The translations under genes and the position numbers were made by a program. Positions 12,501 to 37,780 of a stretch of DNA of 64,000 nucleotides are shown here, piece by piece. Source of the stretch: Candidatus Sulfomarinibacteraceae bacterium (lineage in GTDB: Bacteria; Acidobacteriota; Thermoanaerobaculia; Thermoanaerobaculales; Sulfomarinibacteraceae); contig CAVQSQ010000021.1 of NCBI GenBank assembly GCA_963715955.1, positions 673,295 to 737,294 on the forward strand, written 5' to 3'. Below the pieces are notes generated by a model that had not been told where the DNA came from, did not search any database, and saw only the letters and a list, made by a program, of their open reading frames with translations. Numbering within the stretch: position 1 is the first letter of the stretch; every line of letters starts with the position of its first letter.

Positions 12501-12736
12501 TGATCTCGACCGGAGGTATGAGAACTCTCGACGGATCTCTCGTTCGCCTTCCGGGCCGGGGGTGGTTCGTCGCCCCGACCGGCCTCAACATGGAGAACAA
12601 CGGCGCACAGCCGGATGTCGTGGTGTGGCAACCTCCCTCCGAGGACGCCTCGGCCACCGGGGACACCCAACTTGCGCGCGCAGTCCAGGTGCTGCTGGCA
12701 AACCTCGAGACCGACCCGAGGGCCGGTTCCTGGTAA
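9505..12736 (+). pseudogene. Tricorn-protease-like S41 peptidase (beta-propellers + PDZ + S41 domain), interrupted by a single-base frameshift near 11762-11829
   Basis: Frame 1 (track ORF 9490..11829, real ATG at 9505 after GGAGGAAG) encodes a signal peptide and TolB-like propeller repeats (SPDGTQIAFSWQGDLWVV, SRDGRFIAFASNR) and runs to ...GELNASHMGYYPPG. Frame 2 continues from about 11800 with the PDZ domain (TGWIGVTYDPAAGGPGLLIKEVLPDSPAW...) and the S41 core (LVDVRSNGGGW, CNEDSYSNAEIFS) through track ORF 11927..12736. The span is 3232 nt (3n+1), giving 1076 aa once one base is removed, which is the size of a tricorn protease. Confidence 0.8.
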
Positions 12737-12810
12737 GAACATCGCAACGTTGACGTTGAACGTTGGAAAGTTGTCCATCGACCGGCGGGGTCGAAACACG
12801 GCAGCCGGGA

Positions 12811-13011
12811 CGGCTGCCCCACAAAGGCCTCACCGCAGGACTGAAGCCGAGCGGATTGTGGTGCGGCCGTCCCGGCTGCACCTCGGATGCGCCCGTACCC
12901 GGAAACCGGCACGGCTGCCCACAAAGGCCTCACCGCAGGACTGAAGCCGAGCGGATTGTGGTGCGGCCGTCCCGGCTGCACCTCGGATGCGCCCGTACCC
13001 GGAAACCGGTA
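12811..13011 (+). repeat. Tandem direct duplication, 2 x about 101 bp (identical except for one 1-nt indel and one substitution that I can see). Each unit contains CCACAA..TTGTGG and GTGCGGCCG-TCC-CGGCTGCAC hairpins.
   Basis: Units 12811-12911 and 12912-13011 aligned by eye. Confidence 0.9.
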
Positions 13012-13035
13012 CGGAATGACGACGTAGAATCAAGC

Positions 13036-14091
13036 ATGCATCCCGTGCGCTTCAGGATCGCCGTCGTGTCGCTTGCCGTGTTCGCGGCGGCCGCCGCCGC
13101 ACAGGAACCGGCTCCGACCACCTTCGGCGAGACGATCGAGGTCCGGCGAATCGTCACCGAGGTGCGGGTTGTGGCCTTCGATGGATCGCCGGTGCTCGGT
13201 CTCGGCCCCGAAGACTTCCGGGTCAAGGTCGGCGGCGACCCGGCAGAGGTCGAGTCGGTCGCCTGGATCCCTTCGACGGCCGACGCCGTCGCCCGGGGCG
13301 TGGCCGATCCGGGACACGACTTGGCAGCCGACGACGCCCGGAGACCCCCCGAGGGCAGGTTGATCGTGATTCTCTTCCAGATCGACTTCGCGCCCACTCC
13401 CTCCCGAACCGTCGGCCTGCTGCGGATGGCACCGCGGGCCTCCGAGTTCGTCGCCGGCCTCGGACCGGGGGACCGCGTGGCCCTCCTGGTGTTCGGCAGC
13501 CATCTCGAACTGCGGGCCGACTTCACCGACGACCACCAGGCCCTTGCCGAAATGCTGACCCCGACCGAGATCCTGCGGGGCCGGACCGATCCTCCCTCCC
13601 CCGAGGGCCCGTCCCTGGCCGCTCACCTCGAACCCGAGGCGATGCTGGATTCCGCATCCATGGCGGACGCCCTCGAACTCATCGGGCACGGCCTTCGTGA
13701 GATCCCGGGCACCAAGTCTCTGGTCTTCTTCGGTTACGGCCTCGGCCAGATGACCGCCGGCCATCGGGTCACGATCGACGACAGCTATCCCAGAGCGATG
13801 GAGGCGCTTTCGGAGGCACGGACATCGGTGTTCTCCCTCGACGTCACCCACGCGGATGCCCACTCGTTGGCCGTCGGTCTGCGCCAGGTCGCCGAGGACA
13901 CCGGCGGTTTCTACGTCCAGACCCACATCTTCCCCGAGGCCGCGATGACCAGGCTCGTCCGCGTCATATCGAGCTACTACGAGCTCTCCATCATTCCGCC
14001 GCCCGATCTCCCCGACGACTACACCATCAAGGTCAAGGTCGAGCGCCCGCGGTCCGACGTCTACGTCCGCCAGGAACACGCGTCACCGTAG
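13036..14091 (+). CDS. VWA domain-containing secreted protein (TIGR03436-like, Acidobacteria-type VWFA)
   Basis: ATG at 13036 followed by a signal peptide (MHPVRFRIAVVSLAVFAAAAAAQE). IEVRRIVTEVRVVAFDGSPV..., LIVILFQIDF and SLVFFGYG are typical of the family. The upstream 270 nt of track ORF 12763.. is translated repeat DNA. Confidence 0.7.
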   Translation: MHPVRFRIAVVSLAVFAAAAAAQEPAPTTFGETIEVRRIVTEVRVVAFDGSPVLGLGPEDFRVKVGGDPAEVESVAWIPSTADAVARGVADPGHDLAADDARRPPEGRLIVILFQIDFAPTPSRTVGLLRMAPRASEFVAGLGPGDRVALLVFGSHLELRADFTDDHQALAEMLTPTEILRGRTDPPSPEGPSLAAHLEPEAMLDSASMADALELIGHGLREIPGTKSLVFFGYGLGQMTAGHRVTIDDSYPRAMEALSEARTSVFSLDVTHADAHSLAVGLRQVAEDTGGFYVQTHIFPEAAMTRLVRVISSYYELSIIPPPDLPDDYTIKVKVERPRSDVYVRQEHASP

Positions 14092-14142
14092 ATCTGGCGC
14101 CCTTCTGTGCGATAATCGCCGGCATTCTGGAGGTAACCGAAC

Positions 14143-31088: not shown

Positions 31089-31115
31089 CGCCCGGGCTTC
31101 GGCCCGGGCTTTTTT
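31089..31115 (+). terminator. Rho-independent terminator after the M16 pair
   Basis: GCCCGGGC-TTCG-GCCCGGGC followed by TTTTTT. Confidence 0.85.
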
Positions 31116-31242: not shown

Positions 31243-33015
31243 GTGTTTCGAATCCGCAGAGTCTACGACAACATCTTCGCCCACGACCGGGCCGCCATCG
31301 AACAGGTGCAGGCGATCCTGGTCGACCGCTTTCCGGATCTCGACCCCAAAGATGTTGAAAGCCTGCCCGACAAACTCAGATCACCGGTGCGGCACGGTTT
31401 CCGGGCAACCCTCTACGTCGCCGAATCGCAGCGCCACACCGTCAAGGCCTTCGCCGTCATCCACCACGAGACGGAGATCGGCTTTGTGTGGCTGGATTTC
31501 ATCGCCACCCGATCGGGCACCGCCGGCAGCGGTCTCGGCGGCACCCTGTACGAACGCGTGCGAAGGGACGCTCTGGCGGTGGGCGCGTGGGGCGTCCTCT
31601 TCGAGTGTCTGCCCGACGACCCGGCGCTCTGCCCCGATCCCGCCAAGCGACGCCAGAACGCCGCCCGTCTGCGTTTCTACGAGGGTTTCGGCGCCCGCCC
31701 GGTGGTCGGGACCGGCTACGAAACCCCGCTGAGCCCGGACGACGAGGAGCCTCCCTACCTCGTGATGGACGACCTCGGCACCGGCAAGGCGCCGGGACGC
31801 AAGGCCATGCGCGCGGCGGTGAGGGCGATCCTCGAACGAAAGTACAAGAGCTTGTGTCCCCCGGACTACGTGGAAAGCGTCGTCGCATCGATCCGTGACA
31901 ACCCGGTCCGGCTGCGACCGTTCAAGTACCTCAGCGAACCGACGCGCGCCGAGGCAGATCTTCCGCCCGTCCCCCCTCCCGACCGGCGCATCGCCTTGGT
32001 GGTCAACGACCGCCACCTCATCCACCACGTGCGGGAGCAGGGATATGTGGAGTCGCCGGTTCGGATCAAAGCCATCCGGAAGGAGATTGACCAGACGTCG
32101 CTGTTCGAGGAAACCGCGCTGCGCGAGTTTCCCGATCGGCACCTCTTCGAGGTGCACGACCCGGCCTACGTGCGCTATCTGAAACGGGTGTGCGAGCGGG
32201 TCGGCGACGGGAAGGCCGTCTACCCCTACGTCTTTCCTATCCGGAATGCTGCGCGCCCCCCCAAGGAACTCGAGGTCCGGGCCGGCTATTACTGCATCGA
32301 CACTTTCACACCCCTCAACCGCAACTCGTACCTCGCCGCCCGCCGGGCGGTCGACTGTGTACTCACCGCAGCCCACGCGCTGACCACGGGGCGCCGGCTC
32401 GCCTACGCTCTCGTCAGGCCGCCGGGGCACCACGCCGAGCACCGGTCGTTCGGGGGGTTCTGCTACTTCAGCAACGCGGCCATCGCCGCCCAGGAACTTT
32501 CGAAATCCGCCCGCGTCGCGATTCTCGACCTCGACTATCACCACGGCAACGGCCAGCAGGATATCTTCTGGGAACGCGGCGACGTCCTCACGGTGTCGAT
32601 CCACGGGCACCCGAACTTCGCCTATCCCTATTTCTCGGGCTTCGCCGACGAGCGCGGGGCGGGCGACGGCCTGAACGCAAACCGCAACTACCCGCTCGAA
32701 GAACATGTCGACGGCGAGAGGTACCGGCAGGTCCTGGCCAGGGCGCTGCGCAGGATTACGGACCACGGCACCGAGGTGCTCGTGGTTGCCCTCGGTCTGG
32801 ACACCGGGCGCAAGGACCCCACCGGAACATGGGACCTTGTCACGAAAGACTTCGAGGCCAACGGCCGCCTGGTCGGAGGTCTTCACGTGCCGACCCTGGT
32901 CGTTCAGGAGGGCGGTTACCGTGTCCGCAGCCTCGGGAGCAACGCCCGGAGCTTCTTCACCGGGCTCTGGGAAGGGGCGTTCGGGCTCGACGCGCCAGCC
33001 CCGGATCAAAAATAA
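31243..33015 (+). CDS. Fusion protein: N-terminal GNAT-like acetyltransferase domain plus C-terminal histone-deacetylase-family (acetylpolyamine/acetyl-lysine amidohydrolase-like) domain
   Basis: The GTG at 31243 sits 5 nt after GCAGGAGG. The N-terminal half has a GNAT motif-A-like segment (FIATRSGTAGSGLGGTLYERV). The C-terminal half has HDAC hallmarks (RPPGHHAE, DLDYHHGNGQQ, QEGGY). The first 43 codons of track ORF 31114.. are translated repeats. Confidence 0.8.
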   Translation: MFRIRRVYDNIFAHDRAAIEQVQAILVDRFPDLDPKDVESLPDKLRSPVRHGFRATLYVAESQRHTVKAFAVIHHETEIGFVWLDFIATRSGTAGSGLGGTLYERVRRDALAVGAWGVLFECLPDDPALCPDPAKRRQNAARLRFYEGFGARPVVGTGYETPLSPDDEEPPYLVMDDLGTGKAPGRKAMRAAVRAILERKYKSLCPPDYVESVVASIRDNPVRLRPFKYLSEPTRAEADLPPVPPPDRRIALVVNDRHLIHHVREQGYVESPVRIKAIRKEIDQTSLFEETALREFPDRHLFEVHDPAYVRYLKRVCERVGDGKAVYPYVFPIRNAARPPKELEVRAGYYCIDTFTPLNRNSYLAARRAVDCVLTAAHALTTGRRLAYALVRPPGHHAEHRSFGGFCYFSNAAIAAQELSKSARVAILDLDYHHGNGQQDIFWERGDVLTVSIHGHPNFAYPYFSGFADERGAGDGLNANRNYPLEEHVDGERYRQVLARALRRITDHGTEVLVVALGLDTGRKDPTGTWDLVTKDFEANGRLVGGLHVPTLVVQEGGYRVRSLGSNARSFFTGLWEGAFGLDAPAPDQK

Positions 33016-33039
33016 TTTTCGCCTGAGGGCCACAACCTA

Positions 33040-33067
33040 TTGACACCCGGTAAAACGGGCGTAATGT
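33040..33067 (+). promoter_or_regulatory. Sigma-70-like promoter upstream of kamA
   Basis: TTGACA (33040-33045), a 16-nt spacer, then TAATGT (33062-33067). It lies about 320 nt upstream of the kamA ATG. Confidence 0.5.
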
Positions 33068-33386
33068 CGAATTATGAGCGTGAGTTCCTCCGCTGAAGAG
33101 CCTCCAAGTAGGCTCGGGCCGTCTACCGGACACCAGTCCGGGTGGATGGCCCCCGCTTCCCTCGACGGGAAGCGTCCTCCCAGTGACCCCACGGAAGTGC
33201 GTGTCATGAGTTCGCCGCGCCCGCGGCGACGGGAAACACCACCCCAGAGATAACCAGGCCATGTCGACGCGCCCCTCGGGGCTTTTCGTGCGCCAGGCGC
33301 AGCCGGTAGCCGTTCAGATGAGCGGTACCTGCGAGCGCCTTGCCACACCCATCGAGAACCACTGCATGAAAGAGAGGAATCTTCTG

Positions 33387-34550
33387 ATGTCAGCCAGCGG
33401 CCGCGCCGCAACCACAATCAACACCCTCGACGGACGCGAACGTGTCTGCCGGGTATTCGACGAGACCTACGACCCGACGAGTTGGGCCGATTGGCGTTGG
33501 CAGATGCGCCACCGCTTGACCCGCCTCGAGCACCTCGAGGCATATCTCGATCTGACCGACAGCGAACGCACCGGTCTCGCCATGGGAGCCGAACGCTTCG
33601 CAGTCTCAGTGACGCCCCACTTCGCTGCGTTGATGCATCCTACCGATCCGCAATGCCCCATCCGGCGCCAGGTCGTTCCGACCGCCGACGAGTTCGTCGT
33701 CAGCACCGGCGACATGGAGGACCCGTGCGGCGAGGACCACGCCTCCGCGGTCGAAGGGCTGGTTCACCGCTACCCGGACCGGGTGCTGCTGCTGGCTCTC
33801 GACACCTGCGCCGCCTACTGCCGCTACTGCACGCGGTCGCGGCTGGTCAGCCAGGGCGCCCTCGATCCGCTGCCCCGCCGCATGGACGCCATCCTCGAGT
33901 ATCTGCGCGCACACACCGAGGTGCGGGACGTGCTGCTGTCGGGCGGCGATCCGCTGATGATGTCGGATGACCGGCTCGACGCCCTCCTGGGCTCGATCCG
34001 CGAGATCGAGCACATCGAGTTCGTGCGGATCGGCAGCCGCGTTCCCTGCTTCGTCCCGCAGCGCATCACTCCCGAACTGGCCGCCGTGCTGCGGCGCCAC
34101 AGGGTGTGGCTGTCGGTGCACTTCTCTCACCCCTCCGAATTGACTCCCGAGGTCGAGACCGCGTGCGACATCCTGGCCGACGCGGGCATTCCGCTCGGCA
34201 GCCAGACCGTCCTCTTGCGGGGCGTCAACGACGACGCCGGGGTTTTGAAGGATCTCTTCCACGGGCTCCTCAAGATTCGCGTCCGCCCCTACTACCTCTA
34301 CCAGGCCGACCCGGTGGTCGGCACGGCCCACCTCCGCACCTCGATCGGCAAGGGCATCGAGATCATGAGTCAGCTTCGCGGGCACACCAGCGGCTACGCA
34401 GTGCCCACATACGTGGTGGACGCTCCCGGCGGCGGCGGCAAGATCCCGGTCCAGCCCGAAACGGTGATGGGACGCGACGGCGGCACCTGGCAGCTGAAGA
34501 ACTGGGCGGGCGAAATCTTCACCTATATCGACCCGCCGGAAATGGAGTGA
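33387..34550 (+). CDS. kamA: Lysine 2,3-aminomutase (KamA-family radical SAM/PLP enzyme, short AblA-like form)
   Basis: WADWRWQMRHRL, HRYPDRVLLL and CAAYCRYCTRS (CxxxCxxC), then VLLSGGDPL, RPYYLYQADPVVG and YVVDAPGGGGK. The ATG at 33387 follows AGAGAGGA. The track start at 33261 is also possible. Confidence 0.85.
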   Translation: MSASGRAATTINTLDGRERVCRVFDETYDPTSWADWRWQMRHRLTRLEHLEAYLDLTDSERTGLAMGAERFAVSVTPHFAALMHPTDPQCPIRRQVVPTADEFVVSTGDMEDPCGEDHASAVEGLVHRYPDRVLLLALDTCAAYCRYCTRSRLVSQGALDPLPRRMDAILEYLRAHTEVRDVLLSGGDPLMMSDDRLDALLGSIREIEHIEFVRIGSRVPCFVPQRITPELAAVLRRHRVWLSVHFSHPSELTPEVETACDILADAGIPLGSQTVLLRGVNDDAGVLKDLFHGLLKIRVRPYYLYQADPVVGTAHLRTSIGKGIEIMSQLRGHTSGYAVPTYVVDAPGGGGKIPVQPETVMGRDGGTWQLKNWAGEIFTYIDPPEME

Positions 34551-34555
34551 ACCCG

Positions 34556-35632
34556 ATGCATCTTTCGATCGGTCTCTGTTACGACAGTAAAGAGGAGTAC
34601 CTCGCCGCCGGCCACAGCAAGCTCGAGGTGGCCGAGTTCGACGACGAGGGAGTGATCAGCGGGCTCGAGGAGACCCTCTCCGGCCTCGGCCACCGCGTTG
34701 AACGGGTCGGCCGCGGGCGGGCCCTGGCCGCGCGGTTGGTAGCCGGCGACCGTTGGGACCTCGTCTTCAACGTCACCGAAGGCCTTCGCGGCCGCGCCCG
34801 CGAGGCCCAGGTGCCGGCGTTGTGCGAACTGTTCGATCAGCCCTACACGTTCTCTGATCCGGTGACCTGCGGTCTCACCCTCGACAAGTCTCTGGCCAAA
34901 CGCATCGTCCGCGACAAGGGCCTGCCGACACCCGGCTTCATCATCGTGCGGTCGCTGAGCGACATCGATTCGAGGATCAACGGCAACCCGATGTTCGTCA
35001 AACCGCTTGCCGAAGGCAGCTCGAAGGGCGTCGGCGCCTACTCGATCGTCTCCAACCGCAAACAGCTGATCAAGACCTGCACCCGGTTGCTCCCCGACTT
35101 CCCGACCGGCCTGCTGGTCGAGGAGCTCCTCCCCGGCCGCGAGGTCACCGTCGGAGTCCTCGGCAACGGTGTCAACGCCCGCGTCGTTGCCGTCATGGAA
35201 GTGGTCTGGACCAATCGCTCGGAGGTCGAGGCCTACACCCAGCTCAACAAGGACGAATACCTCGACCGGATGGAGTACCGCCTGGTCACCGGCGAGCCCC
35301 TCGCCGACCAGGCGGCGGAGCTGGCGCTGGCGGTCGTCGAGGCGTTGGATTGCCGTGACGCAGCTCGCGTGGACATGCGGTGCGATGCGGCCGGCAGGCT
35401 TTCATTCATCGAGGTCAACCCGCTGCCGGGTCTCCACCCGGTGCGTTCCGACCTGCCGATCATGGCCCGCATGGCGGGTCTCCCCTACCACGACCTCCTC
35501 GGCGAGATCGTCACTGCAGCCAAAGAAAGGTACGAATCCGAAACATGTCCGACATCCTTGTTGCCCACAACGCTGTCGCAGCCGCGGACGACCCGTCGAC
35601 GCGCGACGTCCTCGCCCAAGTCGGTTTCGTAA
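34556..35632 (+). CDS. ATP-grasp ligase, D-alanine--D-alanine ligase-like (copy 1)
   Basis: The ATG at 34556 lies 6 nt after the kamA stop. LDKSLAKRIVRDKGLPTPGF, FVKPLAEGSSKGV, EELLPGREVTVGVLG and FIEVNPLPGL indicate a Ddl-like ATP-grasp fold. The upstream 450 nt of track ORF 34106.. is out of frame inside kamA. Confidence 0.75.
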   Translation: MHLSIGLCYDSKEEYLAAGHSKLEVAEFDDEGVISGLEETLSGLGHRVERVGRGRALAARLVAGDRWDLVFNVTEGLRGRAREAQVPALCELFDQPYTFSDPVTCGLTLDKSLAKRIVRDKGLPTPGFIIVRSLSDIDSRINGNPMFVKPLAEGSSKGVGAYSIVSNRKQLIKTCTRLLPDFPTGLLVEELLPGREVTVGVLGNGVNARVVAVMEVVWTNRSEVEAYTQLNKDEYLDRMEYRLVTGEPLADQAAELALAVVEALDCRDAARVDMRCDAAGRLSFIEVNPLPGLHPVRSDLPIMARMAGLPYHDLLGEIVTAAKERYESETCPTSLLPTTLSQPRTTRRRATSSPKSVS

Positions 35633-36525
35633 CCGGAGCGCTGGACGCCCTCCGTCTCCCCTACCGCGTGATGGCGGTCGGGGACGGAGGGGTCGACGCC
35701 GCATCGCTCGGCGGCGCGGGGACGGTGTTCAATCTCGTCGAGTCGCCTCCGGGACGCCCCACGTTTCAGGTCGAGGCGGCTGCCGCGTTCGAACGCGCGG
35801 GGCTCAACGTCACCGGTTCGTCCGCCGAGGCCATCCGCGCCACCACCGACAAGGAGGCGACCCGACAGACCCTCACCCGACACGGAGTCGCGGTGGCGCC
35901 CGGCGGACTGCTCGACCCCGATCACCCGGACATCCTCGACAGCGTGATGCCGCCGTGGATCCTCAAGCCGTCGCTCGAGGACGCCTCTCTCGGTCTTGAT
36001 ACCACAGCCGTCACCTCGGACCGCGCGGAAGCCATCACGCGCGCCGGCGAGCTCGGGCGCCTCTTCAACGGCCAACCCGTTCTCGTCGAGCACCTCCTTC
36101 CGGGACGCGAGTTCAACATCTCCATCCTCGACGGAGCATCCGGTCCCGAGGTCCTGCCCGCGGCGGAGATGACCTTTGTCGACTTCCCTCCCGACCGCCC
36201 GCGGATCCTCGATTGGGAGGCGAAGTGGGACGAGGGCTCGTTCGCCTACCGCAACACGGTGCGGGTCTTTCTCAACGGCTCCGAGACGCTCCTCCGGCGC
36301 CACCTCGAAGAGGTCGCGCGGGTTTCGTGGTCGGCCTGCGGTCTCACCGGTTACGGCCGCGTCGACATCCGGCTCGACGAGGACGAGGTGCCGCGAGTGC
36401 TCGAAATCAACGCCAACCCCTGCATCTCCCCCGACGCGGGATTCGCCGCGGCCGCCGCGAAGGCAGGGATCGAACCCGAGGAAATCGTGCGGCGGATCCT
36501 CGCCGCAGCGGGATGGAAAGAATGA
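35545..36525 (+). CDS. ATP-grasp ligase, D-alanine--D-alanine ligase-like (copy 2)
   Basis: ATG at 35545 (MSDILVAHNAV...). TDKEATRQTLTRHGVAVAPG, ILKPSLEDASLGL, EHLLPGREFNISIL and VLEINANPCISP. It overlaps copy 1 by 88 nt if both calls are right. Confidence 0.75.
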   Translation: MSDILVAHNAVAAADDPSTRDVLAQVGFVTGALDALRLPYRVMAVGDGGVDAASLGGAGTVFNLVESPPGRPTFQVEAAAAFERAGLNVTGSSAEAIRATTDKEATRQTLTRHGVAVAPGGLLDPDHPDILDSVMPPWILKPSLEDASLGLDTTAVTSDRAEAITRAGELGRLFNGQPVLVEHLLPGREFNISILDGASGPEVLPAAEMTFVDFPPDRPRILDWEAKWDEGSFAYRNTVRVFLNGSETLLRRHLEEVARVSWSACGLTGYGRVDIRLDEDEVPRVLEINANPCISPDAGFAAAAAKAGIEPEEIVRRILAAAGWKE

Positions 36526-37100
36526 ACACGCTCACCCTGATCTCACCCACCATCGTTCGCCGCGAGCTGTCGATGGCGGACCGCACCCCGGTTCACCGGC
36601 TCCTCGACGCGACCGGGTTCTTCAACCCCGAGGAAGTCGAGGTGGCGATGGAACTGGTCGACGACCGCATCGCCCTCGGCGAGGAGAGCCACTACCGATT
36701 CCTGGTCGGCGAACATCACGGCGAGGTCGCCGGCTACGCCTGCTGGGGGCCGATCCCGGGGACCGTCGAATCGGCGGACCTCTACTGGATCGCAGTCGAC
36801 CCCGCGCTTCAGGGAGTCGGCATCGGCCGCACTCTGCTGGCCCAGGCCGAGAGTTGGATGGCCGCATCGGGGAGGCCTCGCGTCTACCTCGAGACCGCCG
36901 GCCGCGCCCAGTACGCGCCGACCCGAGCCTTCTACCTGGCTTGCGGCTATCAGGTTGCCGCCGAGCTCGAGGACTTCTATGCGCCCGGTGATTCCAGGGT
37001 GACCTTCCTCAAGGTCCTCGATCCGGCGGCGTCACGGGGTCTTCAAGGTTTGAAGAGCCCCGCAGGATCGGCGCCGGCGAAGCAGGCGTCCATCAGGTAG
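36522..37100 (+). CDS. GNAT family N-acetyltransferase
   Basis: The ATG at 36522 overlaps the upstream stop (ATGA). IAVDPALQGVGIGRTLLAQAE is acetyl-CoA-binding motif A. Confidence 0.8.
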   Translation: MNTLTLISPTIVRRELSMADRTPVHRLLDATGFFNPEEVEVAMELVDDRIALGEESHYRFLVGEHHGEVAGYACWGPIPGTVESADLYWIAVDPALQGVGIGRTLLAQAESWMAASGRPRVYLETAGRAQYAPTRAFYLACGYQVAAELEDFYAPGDSRVTFLKVLDPAASRGLQGLKSPAGSAPAKQASIR

Positions 37101-37780
37101 CGCGGCGCCCGCGGCAGGCTCCGCGCGGTCTCCTCATCGACGAGACGGGTGTGGCGCAGCCGGTCGAGGGCATCGCCGAGGTACTCCAGGTCATCGGTCG
37201 TGAACCGCCAGCCGCGATCGTCGAAGCGCGTGAGGTCGCAGGGCACCGAGTAGGCGCGCAGCGCGCTGTAGCCGTCGAGGTTGAAGTAGAAGGGAAAGTA
37301 CGAAAGTGCGAGCTCGCGGACCGTCCGGTACACGGGGTCGCGCATCCGGAGCGCCGTCGTGTTGGATGTGGCGACGGCTCCCCACAGACCGCCCTCGCGA
37401 AAGAGCGCCACGACGTGGTCGTCGTCGTTGTGCGCCCGAAGATCGACCAGCAACGGCGGCCGCCCGTGGTGGCTCAGAGCAGCCGCCGCGAGCAGCGCCC
37501 CTTCCATGCAGTGAGCCCGCCGTACCCGGAGGACCTCCCGCGGCGACCGGCACACCGGCTCCGAGTTGTACGGAATGCCGTCCAGAAAATCCTGAATCGC
37601 CCGCGGCGAATCAAGCCGGTCGAGCACCCGCAGCTCCGCTCGCGGTCCACTTCCAACGTTCCCTCGACCTGACTCCGAGACTCCACCTCTGACCTCCCCG
37701 CAGCGATTTCCGCCGCCCAATCCCGAGGCTGATCGGGCGGCATATCCGAATTCCGAATTCCGAATTCCGAATTCTGACAT
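37043..37780 (-). CDS. Transglutaminase-fold / cysteine-peptidase-like hypothetical protein (start uncertain)
   Basis: [16 protein letters not shown] (Cys), DDDHVVALF (His) and [10 protein letters not shown] resemble a papain/transglutaminase-like core. The candidate starts are ATG 37780 (just before a heptamer array), ATG 37801, TTG 37840 and GTG 37627. The 3' end overlaps the convergent GNAT gene by 58 nt. Confidence 0.55.
37745..37777. repeat. Heptamer tandem array (CCGAATT)n, inverted relative to the 18879 array
   Basis: TCCGAATTCCGAATTCCGAATTCCGAATTCTGA. It lies immediately downstream of the candidate ATG at 37780 of the minus-strand gene. Confidence 0.9.

Follow-up and report, generated by a model that had tools for sequence, protein, structure and literature searches.

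A lysine 2,3-aminomutase and ATP-grasp ligase cassette found across bacterial phyla: candidate pathway to a beta-lysine-derived metabolite

What might a bacterium make with a lysine 2,3-aminomutase, two ATP-grasp ligases of the Ddl fold and putative enzymes for adding and removing acetyl groups? The question is raised by a group of genes in a 64,000-nt stretch of DNA (the window) from a Candidatus Sulfomarinibacteraceae bacterium (contig CAVQSQ010000021.1, positions 673,295 to 737,294), for which an original prediction, made by a model from the sequence alone, had suggested a six-gene pathway to a beta-lysine-derived metabolite or peptide. Using open reading frame (ORF) listing and start-codon inspection, we found that the cassette proper occupies window positions 31243-37100 on the forward strand and comprises five genes, which encode a fusion of a GNAT-like domain to a deacetylase (P1), the aminomutase KamA (P2), the ligases AG1 (P3) and AG2 (P4) and a small GNAT (P5). 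The reading that we favour, and to which we assign a probability of about 0.55, is that KamA makes beta-lysine, that AG1 and AG2 use this to assemble a small amide or oligopeptide of beta-lysine, that the small GNAT acetylates this product and that the P1 fusion, whose deacetylase is of the acetylpolyamine amidohydrolase (APAH) type, tunes its acetylation state.

All six ORFs of the original prediction are real, in the order, at the coordinates and on the strands that it gave, five of them co-directional on the forward strand and the sixth (P6) convergent on the reverse strand. Remeasurement also bore out the 88-nt overlap between AG2, whose ATG lies at 35545, and AG1, which ends at 35632, the ATGA overlap between AG2 and the small GNAT gene (36522-36525) and the 58-nt overlap of the GNAT gene tail with P6, whose stop is at 37043. 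The gap between the KamA stop at 34550 and the AG1 ATG at 34556 had been put at 6 nt and measures 5 nt. Tight packing, claimed for all five genes, holds from KamA through to the small GNAT gene but not at the junction of P1 and KamA, where a spacer of 371 nt (33016-33386) holds a promoter-like site and an upstream ORF (uORF) of 59 codons.

Conservation of the gene order

We scanned one genome per species, covering 185,579 species, with two AG2-specific peptide patterns and obtained 587 confirmed loci; the synteny figures that follow refer to the best 80 of these 587 AG2-related loci (designated by L numbers), in which the window proteins were located by tblastn. AG2 was present in every locus, AG1 was missing from two spirochaete loci alone, and KamA was missing only where the end of a contig cuts the locus. 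The cassette genes are co-directional and tightly packed in the 80 loci, and a small GNAT gene follows in 71 of them. P1-type fusions of a GNAT-like domain to a deacetylase occur in 28, placed either ahead of KamA, or in the KamA/AG1 interval, or so as to separate AG2 from the GNAT gene. The carriers span at least nine phyla or groups, among them Acidobacteriota (Thermoanaerobaculia), Bacteroidota, 'Deltaproteobacteria'/Desulfobacterota, Myxococcota (Myxococcales), Gammaproteobacteria (Chromatiaceae, Woeseia and Nitrococcus), Planctomycetota, Spirochaetota, Marinisomatota (Neomarinimicrobiota) and Dependentiae. With P6 left aside, the order KamA-AG1-AG2-GNAT is kept across phyla, and the idea that these genes form one conserved functional unit was thus upheld by the recurrence of the arrangement, beyond chance, in 80/80 of the best related loci. 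The operon seems to be subject to horizontal transfer.

The variants of the cassette show which of its parts are dispensable. In spirochaetes it reads KamA-AG2-GNAT, in six loci KamA-AG1-AG2 lacks a GNAT gene, and the cyanobacteria Planktothricoides and Nostoc have KamA-AG1 alone, as proteins 66-69% and 61% identical to those of the window. Fusions of AG2 to the GNAT occur, as do three-part proteins in which the GNAT-like domain and deacetylase are joined to a GNAT. Every variant keeps KamA and at least one Ddl-fold ligase. We conclude that the invariant core is a lysine-type aminomutase plus at least one Ddl-fold ligase, with acetylation and deacetylation as add-ons, which argues against obligatory acetyl protection and also against a plain AblA/AblB operon. 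The transient N-acetyl protection that had been proposed is therefore unlikely as an obligatory step, and the occurrence of P1 in only about a third of the loci, the loci that lack a GNAT and the cyanobacterial modules together make acetylation in the cassette look like tailoring or homeostasis.

All-against-all clustering of the ORFs in the loci revealed no conserved neighbour beyond lineage-level synteny, and no conserved transporter, regulator, resistance gene, carrier protein or decarboxylase was found beside the cassette in these loci. These results bear on whether the genes are instead a cluster for a secreted beta-lysine peptide of the antibiotic or siderophore kind, in which the GNAT and the deacetylase would serve in self-resistance or in handling of a pro-drug. 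Streptothricins, viomycin and negamycin are built in part from beta-lysine, the group that GNATs acetylate when they detoxify streptothricin. Consistent with such a role, the phyletic distribution is patchy and a putative streptothricin acetyltransferase structure is matched weakly both by P5 and by the profile of the P1 N-domain, of which it is the top GNAT-type match in the PDB (E 0.089). However, no exporter, resistance target, nonribosomal peptide synthetase (NRPS) or polyketide synthase gene or regulator is conserved with the cassette, a search for plasmid copies found none, and for a secondary-metabolite cluster the gene order and content are unusually uniform over nine or more phyla. 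We consider a secreted peptide improbable. Because of the uniform architecture across phyla and the lack of exporter and resistance genes, a cytoplasmic metabolite is favoured over an antibiotic; the product is most likely retained in the cytoplasm, as either an organic cation or a compatible solute, and an exported antibiotic is unlikely.

Enzymes of the cassette and the proposed pathway

KamA (33387-34550, +) has the LAM_C and Radical_SAM domains of the radical-SAM/pyridoxal phosphate (PLP) lysine 2,3-aminomutase family. The start at 33387, which has the Shine-Dalgarno (SD) sequence GAGAGG, is preferred over the alternatives at 33366 and 33261. The protein matches the lysine 2,3-aminomutase 2A5H from Clostridium with an E value of 9e-126 and scores 330.7 bits against the NCBIfam family model TIGR00238, above the cutoff of 199.2. 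Of the NCBIfam equivalog models, that of AblA (TIGR03820) gave the top score with 450 bits, below its cutoff of 525, followed by the glutamate (395 bits), arginine (375 bits) and EpmB (254 bits, cutoff 369) models; the check by hidden Markov model (HMM) that the original prediction had called for thus places KamA closest to the lysine type. Alignment to 2A5H identified C125, C129 and C132 as the CxxxCxxC motif, K337 as the PLP lysine, R134 as the carboxylate-binding residue and D293 and D330 as the pair that binds the epsilon-ammonium group, and all of these are invariant in 73/73 cassette KamA orthologues. The earlier observation that KamA retains both the radical-SAM motif and the Asp pair was therefore correct, and the prediction that cassette KamA converts L-lysine to beta-lysine (3,6-diaminohexanoate) is well supported.

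KamA is also the first enzyme of clostridial lysine fermentation, and many of the carriers are anaerobes, as would be expected of a catabolic cassette in which KamA opens the fermentation or degradation of lysine and the other enzymes salvage or detoxify intermediates. However, 5,6-aminomutase, Kdd, Kce and Kal are not conserved beside the cassette, ATP-consuming ligases are anabolic, and aerobic cyanobacteria, Woeseia and Nitrococcus are carriers too, so that we regard a catabolic function as extremely unlikely.

AG1 (34556-35632, +; Pfam Dala_Dala_lig_C, E 2e-27) and AG2 (35545-36525, +; same domain, E 8e-17) are distant paralogues with 27% identity. Both belong to the Ddl clade by sequence and by fold, and lie outside the RimK/LysX clade. 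They were modelled by AlphaFold with predicted local distance difference test (pLDDT) values of 80.5 and 88.3, respectively, the last ~28 codons of AG1 (aa 331-358), which overlap AG2, being predicted as disordered with pLDDT below 50. The top 50 Foldseek matches of each ligase were exclusively Ddl/Van structures, and the AG2 model gave template modelling (TM) scores of 0.79-0.86 to DdlA/DdlB. Nevertheless, neither protein is a bona fide Ddl or RimK enzyme, in line with the original proposal, since they score 133 and 95 bits against the Ddl NCBIfam model, where the cutoff is 243, and residues of the D-Ala site have been replaced. The replacements are H63 to E, Y216 to E or D and L282 to D in AG1, and S150 to A, Y216 to W, G276 to C and L282 to G in AG2. 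By contrast with this site, the ATP/Mg and catalytic residues K97, K144, E180, E187, K215, R255, D257, E270 and N272 are invariant in the 78 AG1 and 80 AG2 orthologues compared. No mur/ftsQ or van gene context is conserved around the ligases in the cassette loci.

The Ddl fold and the intact catalytic apparatus point to amide ligation through an acyl phosphate on small substrates, and because three positions of its pocket have turned acidic, AG1 is predicted to have an acidic substrate pocket, which suggests a diamino acid or a second basic molecule as substrate. Kinship of AG1 with PylC was considered and found unsupported, as PylC is absent from the PDB matches of the AG1 profile at E<=1e-3. 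The long N-terminus of AG2 is conserved among homologues, with A7, H8, N9, D16, S18, T19 and D21 invariant, and for this reason we take the 88-nt overlap of the two ligase genes to be real. A public protein identical to AG2 (P0002, 284 aa) has the internal ATG at 35671 as its start; given the conservation of the homologues, which backs the start at 35545, this deposited annotation is probably short by 42 residues.

In P1 (31243-33015, +) a divergent domain resembling GNATs (aa 1-~250) precedes an APAH-type zinc deacetylase (aa 269-574; Pfam Hist_deacetyl, E 3e-70). It had been described as a GNAT-HDAC fusion. The first half of this label probably holds by way of the orthologues, 20/22 of which match the Pfam GNAT models Acetyltransf_7/1 (best E 3e-7), the match of the window protein itself being weak (E 0.02); the acetyl-CoA motif (R/Q-x-x-G-x-G/A) reads GRGIGG in P1 orthologues and GSGLGG in the window protein. 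The second half was refined. The top five PDB matches of the deacetylase are APAHs (9gkz, 3q9b, 6phr and 3men among them, E 3e-65 to 1e-58), compared with E 1e-49 for HDAC6 and 1e-30 for bacterial HDAH, so that by homology it is closest to the small-molecule acetylpolyamine amidohydrolases rather than to protein deacetylases. The motifs RPPGHHA, DLDYHHGNG, LGLDTGRKDP and EGGY are legible in it and supply the His-His dyad, the Asp/His/Asp zinc ligands and the catalytic Tyr.

The small GNAT P5 (36522-37100, +, with an alternative start at 36513; Pfam Acetyltransf_1, E 9e-15) ends in a non-conserved tail of ~20 codons, which is the part that overlaps P6. It gave no NCBIfam match to an AblB-type beta-lysine acetyltransferase model at E<=0.01, only weak matches to RimI-like and generic GNAT models, and its solved homologue 2r7h (E 2e-35) is named 'putative D-alanine N-acetyltransferase'.

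These data allow the simplest alternative to be weighed, namely that the genes are an ordinary AblA/AblB operon that makes N-epsilon-acetyl-beta-lysine as an osmolyte, with the ATP-grasp genes as unrelated passengers or true cell-wall Ddl genes. KamA plus a GNAT is indeed the composition of AblAB, AblA is the top HMM for KamA, and bacteria, like methanogens, are known to have AblAB operons. An example has been annotated in Pelobacter carbinolicus (PMC3543383). However, the ligase genes are flanked by those of KamA and the GNAT in practically every locus and are a more constant component than the latter, KamA-AG1 exists without any GNAT, AG2-GNAT fusions exist, and the GNAT has no AblB-type match; the ligases, for their part, fall short of the Ddl cutoffs, have lost D-Ala-site residues and are without mur/ftsQ/van context. 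We conclude that a plain AblAB operon is highly improbable.

The pathway that we propose in its place, built on demonstrated gene content, synteny, gene fusions, fold and residue conservation, would run as follows. KamA would convert L-lysine to beta-lysine, and AG1 would then form, via an acyl phosphate, an amide bond that involves beta-lysine; the fold and catalytic residues argue for this mechanism, and the pocket for a second basic molecule as partner, the simplest candidate being another (beta-)lysine, which would give a cationic dipeptide. AG2 would form a second amide bond, which would extend or cap the product, and the small GNAT would N-acetylate a remaining free amine. As an accessory step, in about a third of the loci, P1 would strip an N-acetyl group from the aminoalkyl side chain, for example at the epsilon end of a beta-lysyl residue, and might re-install one. 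Acetylation and deacetylation would in this way set the charge of the product, much as in polyamines. In the lineage of the window, the KamA operon would be transcribed from a promoter of its own, and a translated leader ORF with an acidic-Pro-Pro motif probably couples its expression to ribosome pausing.

Several points weigh against this pathway. The score of KamA, lower than the cutoff of the AblA equivalog, leaves some room for a related basic substrate. The nearest named models of P5 are RimI-type protein N-terminal acetyltransferases, matched weakly (45 bits against a cutoff of 86), and Ddl-fold enzymes could in principle act on the carboxylate or amine of a peptide or protein; the conserved acidic-Pro-Pro peptide described below could likewise be a substrate and not a regulator. 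The habitats of the carriers (soils, digesters, sediments, hot springs and freshwater for the cyanobacteria) are so mixed that they give no clear pointer to osmoadaptation. The substrates beyond lysine, the order of the steps and the physiological role are parts of the pathway that we infer.

The leader and its acidic-Pro-Pro motif

The spacer ahead of KamA contains a promoter-like element for the KamA operon at 33040-33068 (+), with a -35 hexamer TTGACA (33040-33045) that is invariant in relatives and a -10-like hexamer TAATGT (33063-33068) that matches at 3/6 positions, for which reason the element was not listed by a generic promoter scan. A uORF of 59 codons (MSVSSSAEEPPSRLGP...PPQR*; 33074-33253, +) begins close to the predicted transcription start and lies inside a structured leader of ~310 nt. 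A conserved nucleotide motif of the leader, GA(R)CCTCCNAGTAGG, translates as (D/E)EPPSR, which in the window is the EEPPSR encoded at 33095-33112. We compared 16 related leaders (L001-L003, L007, L088, L089, L096, L098, L100, L102, L109, L112, L113, L118, L119 and L121); the frame is open in 16/16 of them, over 59-80 codons, and (D/E)EPPSR is its sole conserved feature. The seven internal indels all have lengths divisible by 3, but the substitutions are without codon periodicity. A scan of metagenomes with the most conserved 20-mer of the leader recovered 12 further cassette loci that carry it.

The idea that the leader is a structured RNA with covarying hairpins was superseded, since the open frame and the indels in multiples of 3 mark it as mainly a frame-preserved uORF; as regards a riboswitch, neither the window nor the sequence ahead of KamA in 16 other loci matched any Rfam family. 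The uORF stops 8-10 nt ahead of a conserved ATG, and this second ATG together with CGCnCCCCTCGGGG directly past the stop (window 33261-33290) opens a second short ORF, which is in frame with KamA in the window and out of frame in L001 and L002. The region could represent either another uORF or a hairpin in the RNA (GCCCC-TC-GGGGC).

The motif extends well beyond the lineage of the window. [DE][EQA]PP lies upstream of KamA or is fused to it in ~47/72 cassette loci with a detectable KamA core, compared with 7% of random 450-nt windows. In Thermoanaerobaculia it belongs to a uORF of its own, whose frame relative to that of KamA varies, and is encoded by nearly invariant nucleotides that include rare codons. 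In the other phyla it is in frame within an N-terminal extension of KamA and its codons vary, a pattern suggestive of constraint on the amino acids. Most cassette KamAs outside Acidobacteriota and cyanobacteria have such an extension, 50-100 aa long and of low complexity (L031-L079; for example L039 8594-9940, L071 and L073), with EEPPG/S/P 10-35 residues from its start. The proline codons of the motif are biased to CCU-CC (34/47), an anti-Shine-Dalgarno-like string, and pairing of CCUCC with the KamA SD, as an anti-SD function would entail, was seen in 2/14 minimum free energy folds. The motif is absent from the cyanobacterial KamA-AG1 modules.

Two functions of the motif can be considered. 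On the pattern of its conservation, the leader is a candidate translational sensor or ribosome-pausing leader peptide, and the main alternative is that the peptide is a substrate of the ligases. A regulatory uORF fits better than a substrate because outside the motif the peptide is not conserved and its substitutions lack codon periodicity. The same evidence bears on a broader alternative, that of protein or peptide modification, in which one or both ATP-grasp enzymes would attach beta-lysine to a ribosomal product (the acidic-Pro-Pro peptide, the N-terminal tail of KamA through Glu side chains or its N-terminus, or a translation factor such as elongation factor P (EF-P)), the GNAT would acetylate the appended amine and the APAH-type enzyme would reverse this. 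Protein-modifying ATP-grasp enzymes are known (RimK, LysX/LysW, TTL/TTLL and PGM1), and EpmB, a KamA paralogue, supplies beta-lysine for EF-P, which acts on Pro-Pro motifs. The placement of the motif, in the form [DE][EQ]PP[SG], shortly ahead of KamA or joined to it would suit this alternative, as would the RimI-type models that head the named matches of the GNAT. On the other hand, the ligases are of the Ddl clade and not of the RimK/LysX clade, the deacetylase is APAH-like and thus of a small-molecule type, and the motif is missing where KamA and AG1 occur alone. A search of 123 loci and of the window turned up no efp gene, and no EpmA-like or other conserved partner emerged beside the cassette, EpmA not having been searched for by name. 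We consider protein modification unlikely, though less so than a secreted peptide.

A more specific form of the small-molecule pathway can be offered tentatively, as a possibility well short of an even chance. The product would be an organic polycation of a hitherto unknown, beta-lysine-based class (for example a beta-lysyl-(beta-)lysine amide) whose charge is toggled by GNAT and APAH, with feedback control through the acidic-Pro-Pro leader or N-terminal tag. The leader or tag would read ribosome pausing, as a measure of EF-P activity, of Mg2+/polycation status or of proline status, and the whole would form a homeostasis circuit like that of polyamines, with a radical-SAM aminomutase and Ddl-type ligases as its basis. 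In a bolder variant, the ligases would beta-lysylate a component of the translation machinery by an EpmA-independent route.

Surroundings of the cassette and comparison with known systems

At its 5' side the cassette is bounded by an intrinsic-terminator-like hairpin with a T-run (31090-31109, +; 8 G-C pairs and a TTTTTT tail) that closes the upstream M16-peptidase genes, and its base composition is uniform with that of the surroundings. On its 3' side lies the convergent gene P6 (37043-37720, -, with its start at 37627 or 37720). The original prediction had taken P6 for a transglutaminase- or cysteine-peptidase-fold gene starting at 37780. The fold stands, since the family profile matches CPR-C4 (7ob6/7pjo) in the PDB with E 9e-70, whereas the start does not, as the conserved part begins near 37627-37720. 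P6 is thus a CPR-C4/vasohibin-like cysteine protease of the transglutaminase fold, from a family of 1283 representative clusters (E<=1e-3) in which Cys40, Asp68 and His71 are invariant; its profile gives weaker matches to tubulinyl-Tyr carboxypeptidase, and family members weakly match Pfam Transglut_core, Vasohibin and DUF553. In eukaryotes, vasohibins reverse a modification made by an ATP-grasp enzyme (TTL). Among the related loci, P6 was found solely in L007 and L113, the closest relatives of the window, so that the proposed six-gene unit does not stand; we rejected P6 as a cassette member and regard it as a neighbour outside the system.

A few loci have singular features around the cassette. 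A multi-pass permease of ~417 aa flanks it in six loci from two phyla, upstream of KamA in L008, L019, L022, L028 and L029 and downstream of the GNAT gene in L073; by eye it resembles ArsB/NhaD or citrate transporters, and it is the sole transporter candidate. In a deltaproteobacterial metagenome-assembled genome (MAG; L036, ~12706-14124) the cassette GNAT carries a fused ureohydrolase domain of the agmatinase family, and an agmatinase-family gene lies 1.7 kb downstream in a Bacteroidales MAG (L048, 13132-13893), a hint that the substrate in some lineages is of a guanidino or polyamine type. In one Nostoc sp. (L083, 2298-2666) a gene for a 122-aa SET-domain protein, like a lysine methyltransferase, is located between KamA and AG1; it could methylate a lysine-derived amine. 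In three gammaproteobacterial MAGs (L041, L057 and L058) the end of the cassette adjoins the 3' end of an rRNA operon, with 5S and 23S on the opposite strand, at a distance from the GNAT gene of 100-300 nt in L041 and L057 and of ~1.4 kb in L058.

We found no description of the cassette and no characterised product for it in full-text searches of the literature, an earlier in-silico mention being possible. The enzyme families are known, and it is their combination, the breadth of their distribution and the leader motif that are undescribed in the literature found. If the proposed pathway is right, hundreds of bacterial species, including abundant soil Acidobacteriota, sulfate reducers of sediments, Bacteroidales of digesters, planctomycetes and bloom-forming or symbiotic cyanobacteria, would make an undescribed beta-amino-acid metabolite with four enzymes and no NRPS. 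It would extend the biology of beta-lysine past N-epsilon-acetyl-beta-lysine, EF-P modification and antibiotics, would add beta-amino and diamino acids as a new substrate class of Ddl-fold ligases, with a use in enzymatic beta-peptide synthesis, and would assign a physiological partner to the bacterial fusions of a GNAT to an acetylpolyamine amidohydrolase. The leader could be a new and phylogenetically broad case of control by translational pausing. The question is directly testable, because the natural module variants, of 2, 3, 4 and 5 genes, form a ready series for dissection.

Comparison with known systems shows where the cassette departs from each of them. The beta-lysylation of EF-P by EpmA, EpmB and EpmC differs in that cassette KamA is under the EpmB cutoff (254 against 369 bits) and showed no linkage to efp in the loci. 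Ddl and VanA share with the cassette ligases the three-domain fold (TM 0.7-0.86) and the invariant ATP/Mg and catalytic residues; the latter, however, score far under the Ddl cutoffs, have replaced specificity residues of the E15/S150/Y216/S281/L282 type and have no cell-wall context. In pyrrolysine biosynthesis a radical-SAM lysine mutase, PylB, is paired with a Ddl-like ATP-grasp ligase, PylC. There too a radical-SAM rearrangement of lysine is followed by ATP-grasp condensation with an amine, and the cyanobacterial KamA-AG1 module is the closest formal analogue; unlike this system, the cassette has a KamA that is not of PylB type, and neither PylD nor a conserved dehydrogenase was found in the loci.

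As regards the leader, SpeFL and eukaryotic PPW uORFs are among the leader-peptide regulators known. MgtL, SecM and CadC, which act by ribosome pausing, have been reviewed together, MgtL being the precedent for an acidic-plus-proline peptide (PMC12856214). With these pausing leader peptides the cassette leader has in common a short 5' ORF, a preserved frame and, in its own case, the acidic-Pro-Pro motif, but it has no sequence relationship to them, and in most phyla its motif is fused in frame to the N-terminus of KamA.

Polyamine homeostasis, in which GNATs of the SpeG/SSAT kind work alongside APAHs, resembles the cassette in that the cassette deacetylase is closest to solved APAHs and is paired with GNAT domains, and agmatinase-family domains are occasionally fused or adjacent to the cassette; it differs in that the cassette joins GNAT and APAH domains in one protein, and does so inside a beta-lysine ligase operon. 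AblA/AblB offers a lysine 2,3-aminomutase with the Asp pair and a GNAT in one operon, as well as beta-lysine as a cytoplasmic building block. The cassette, in contrast, inserts one or two Ddl-fold ligases that are more constant than its GNAT, the GNAT is not of AblB type, KamA is under the AblA cutoff and an APAH-type fusion is often added; the earlier argument that AblA/AblB leaves the cassette unexplained was thus strengthened by a GNAT that matches no AblB-type NCBIfam model.

N-acetylated dipeptides are made by a GNAT together with an ATP-grasp enzyme in the pathways of N-acetylglutaminylglutamine amide (NAGGN; Ngg/AsnO) and mammalian N-acetylaspartylglutamate (NAAG; NAT8L with RIMKLA/B), and carnosine synthase is an ATP-grasp enzyme that uses beta-alanine. 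These pathways share with the cassette the ATP-grasp ligation of an amino or beta-amino acid and N-acetylation, and the AG2-GNAT fusions of the cassette mirror the bifunctional Ngg; no AsnO-type amidotransferase is conserved beside the cassette in the loci. The cassette differs from them in having two ligases of the Ddl clade and a radical-SAM aminomutase that would make the precursor in situ. The known kinds of system nearest to the cassette are thus the beta-lysine solute pathway on the one side and the GNAT/ATP-grasp pathways for N-acetylated peptides on the other.

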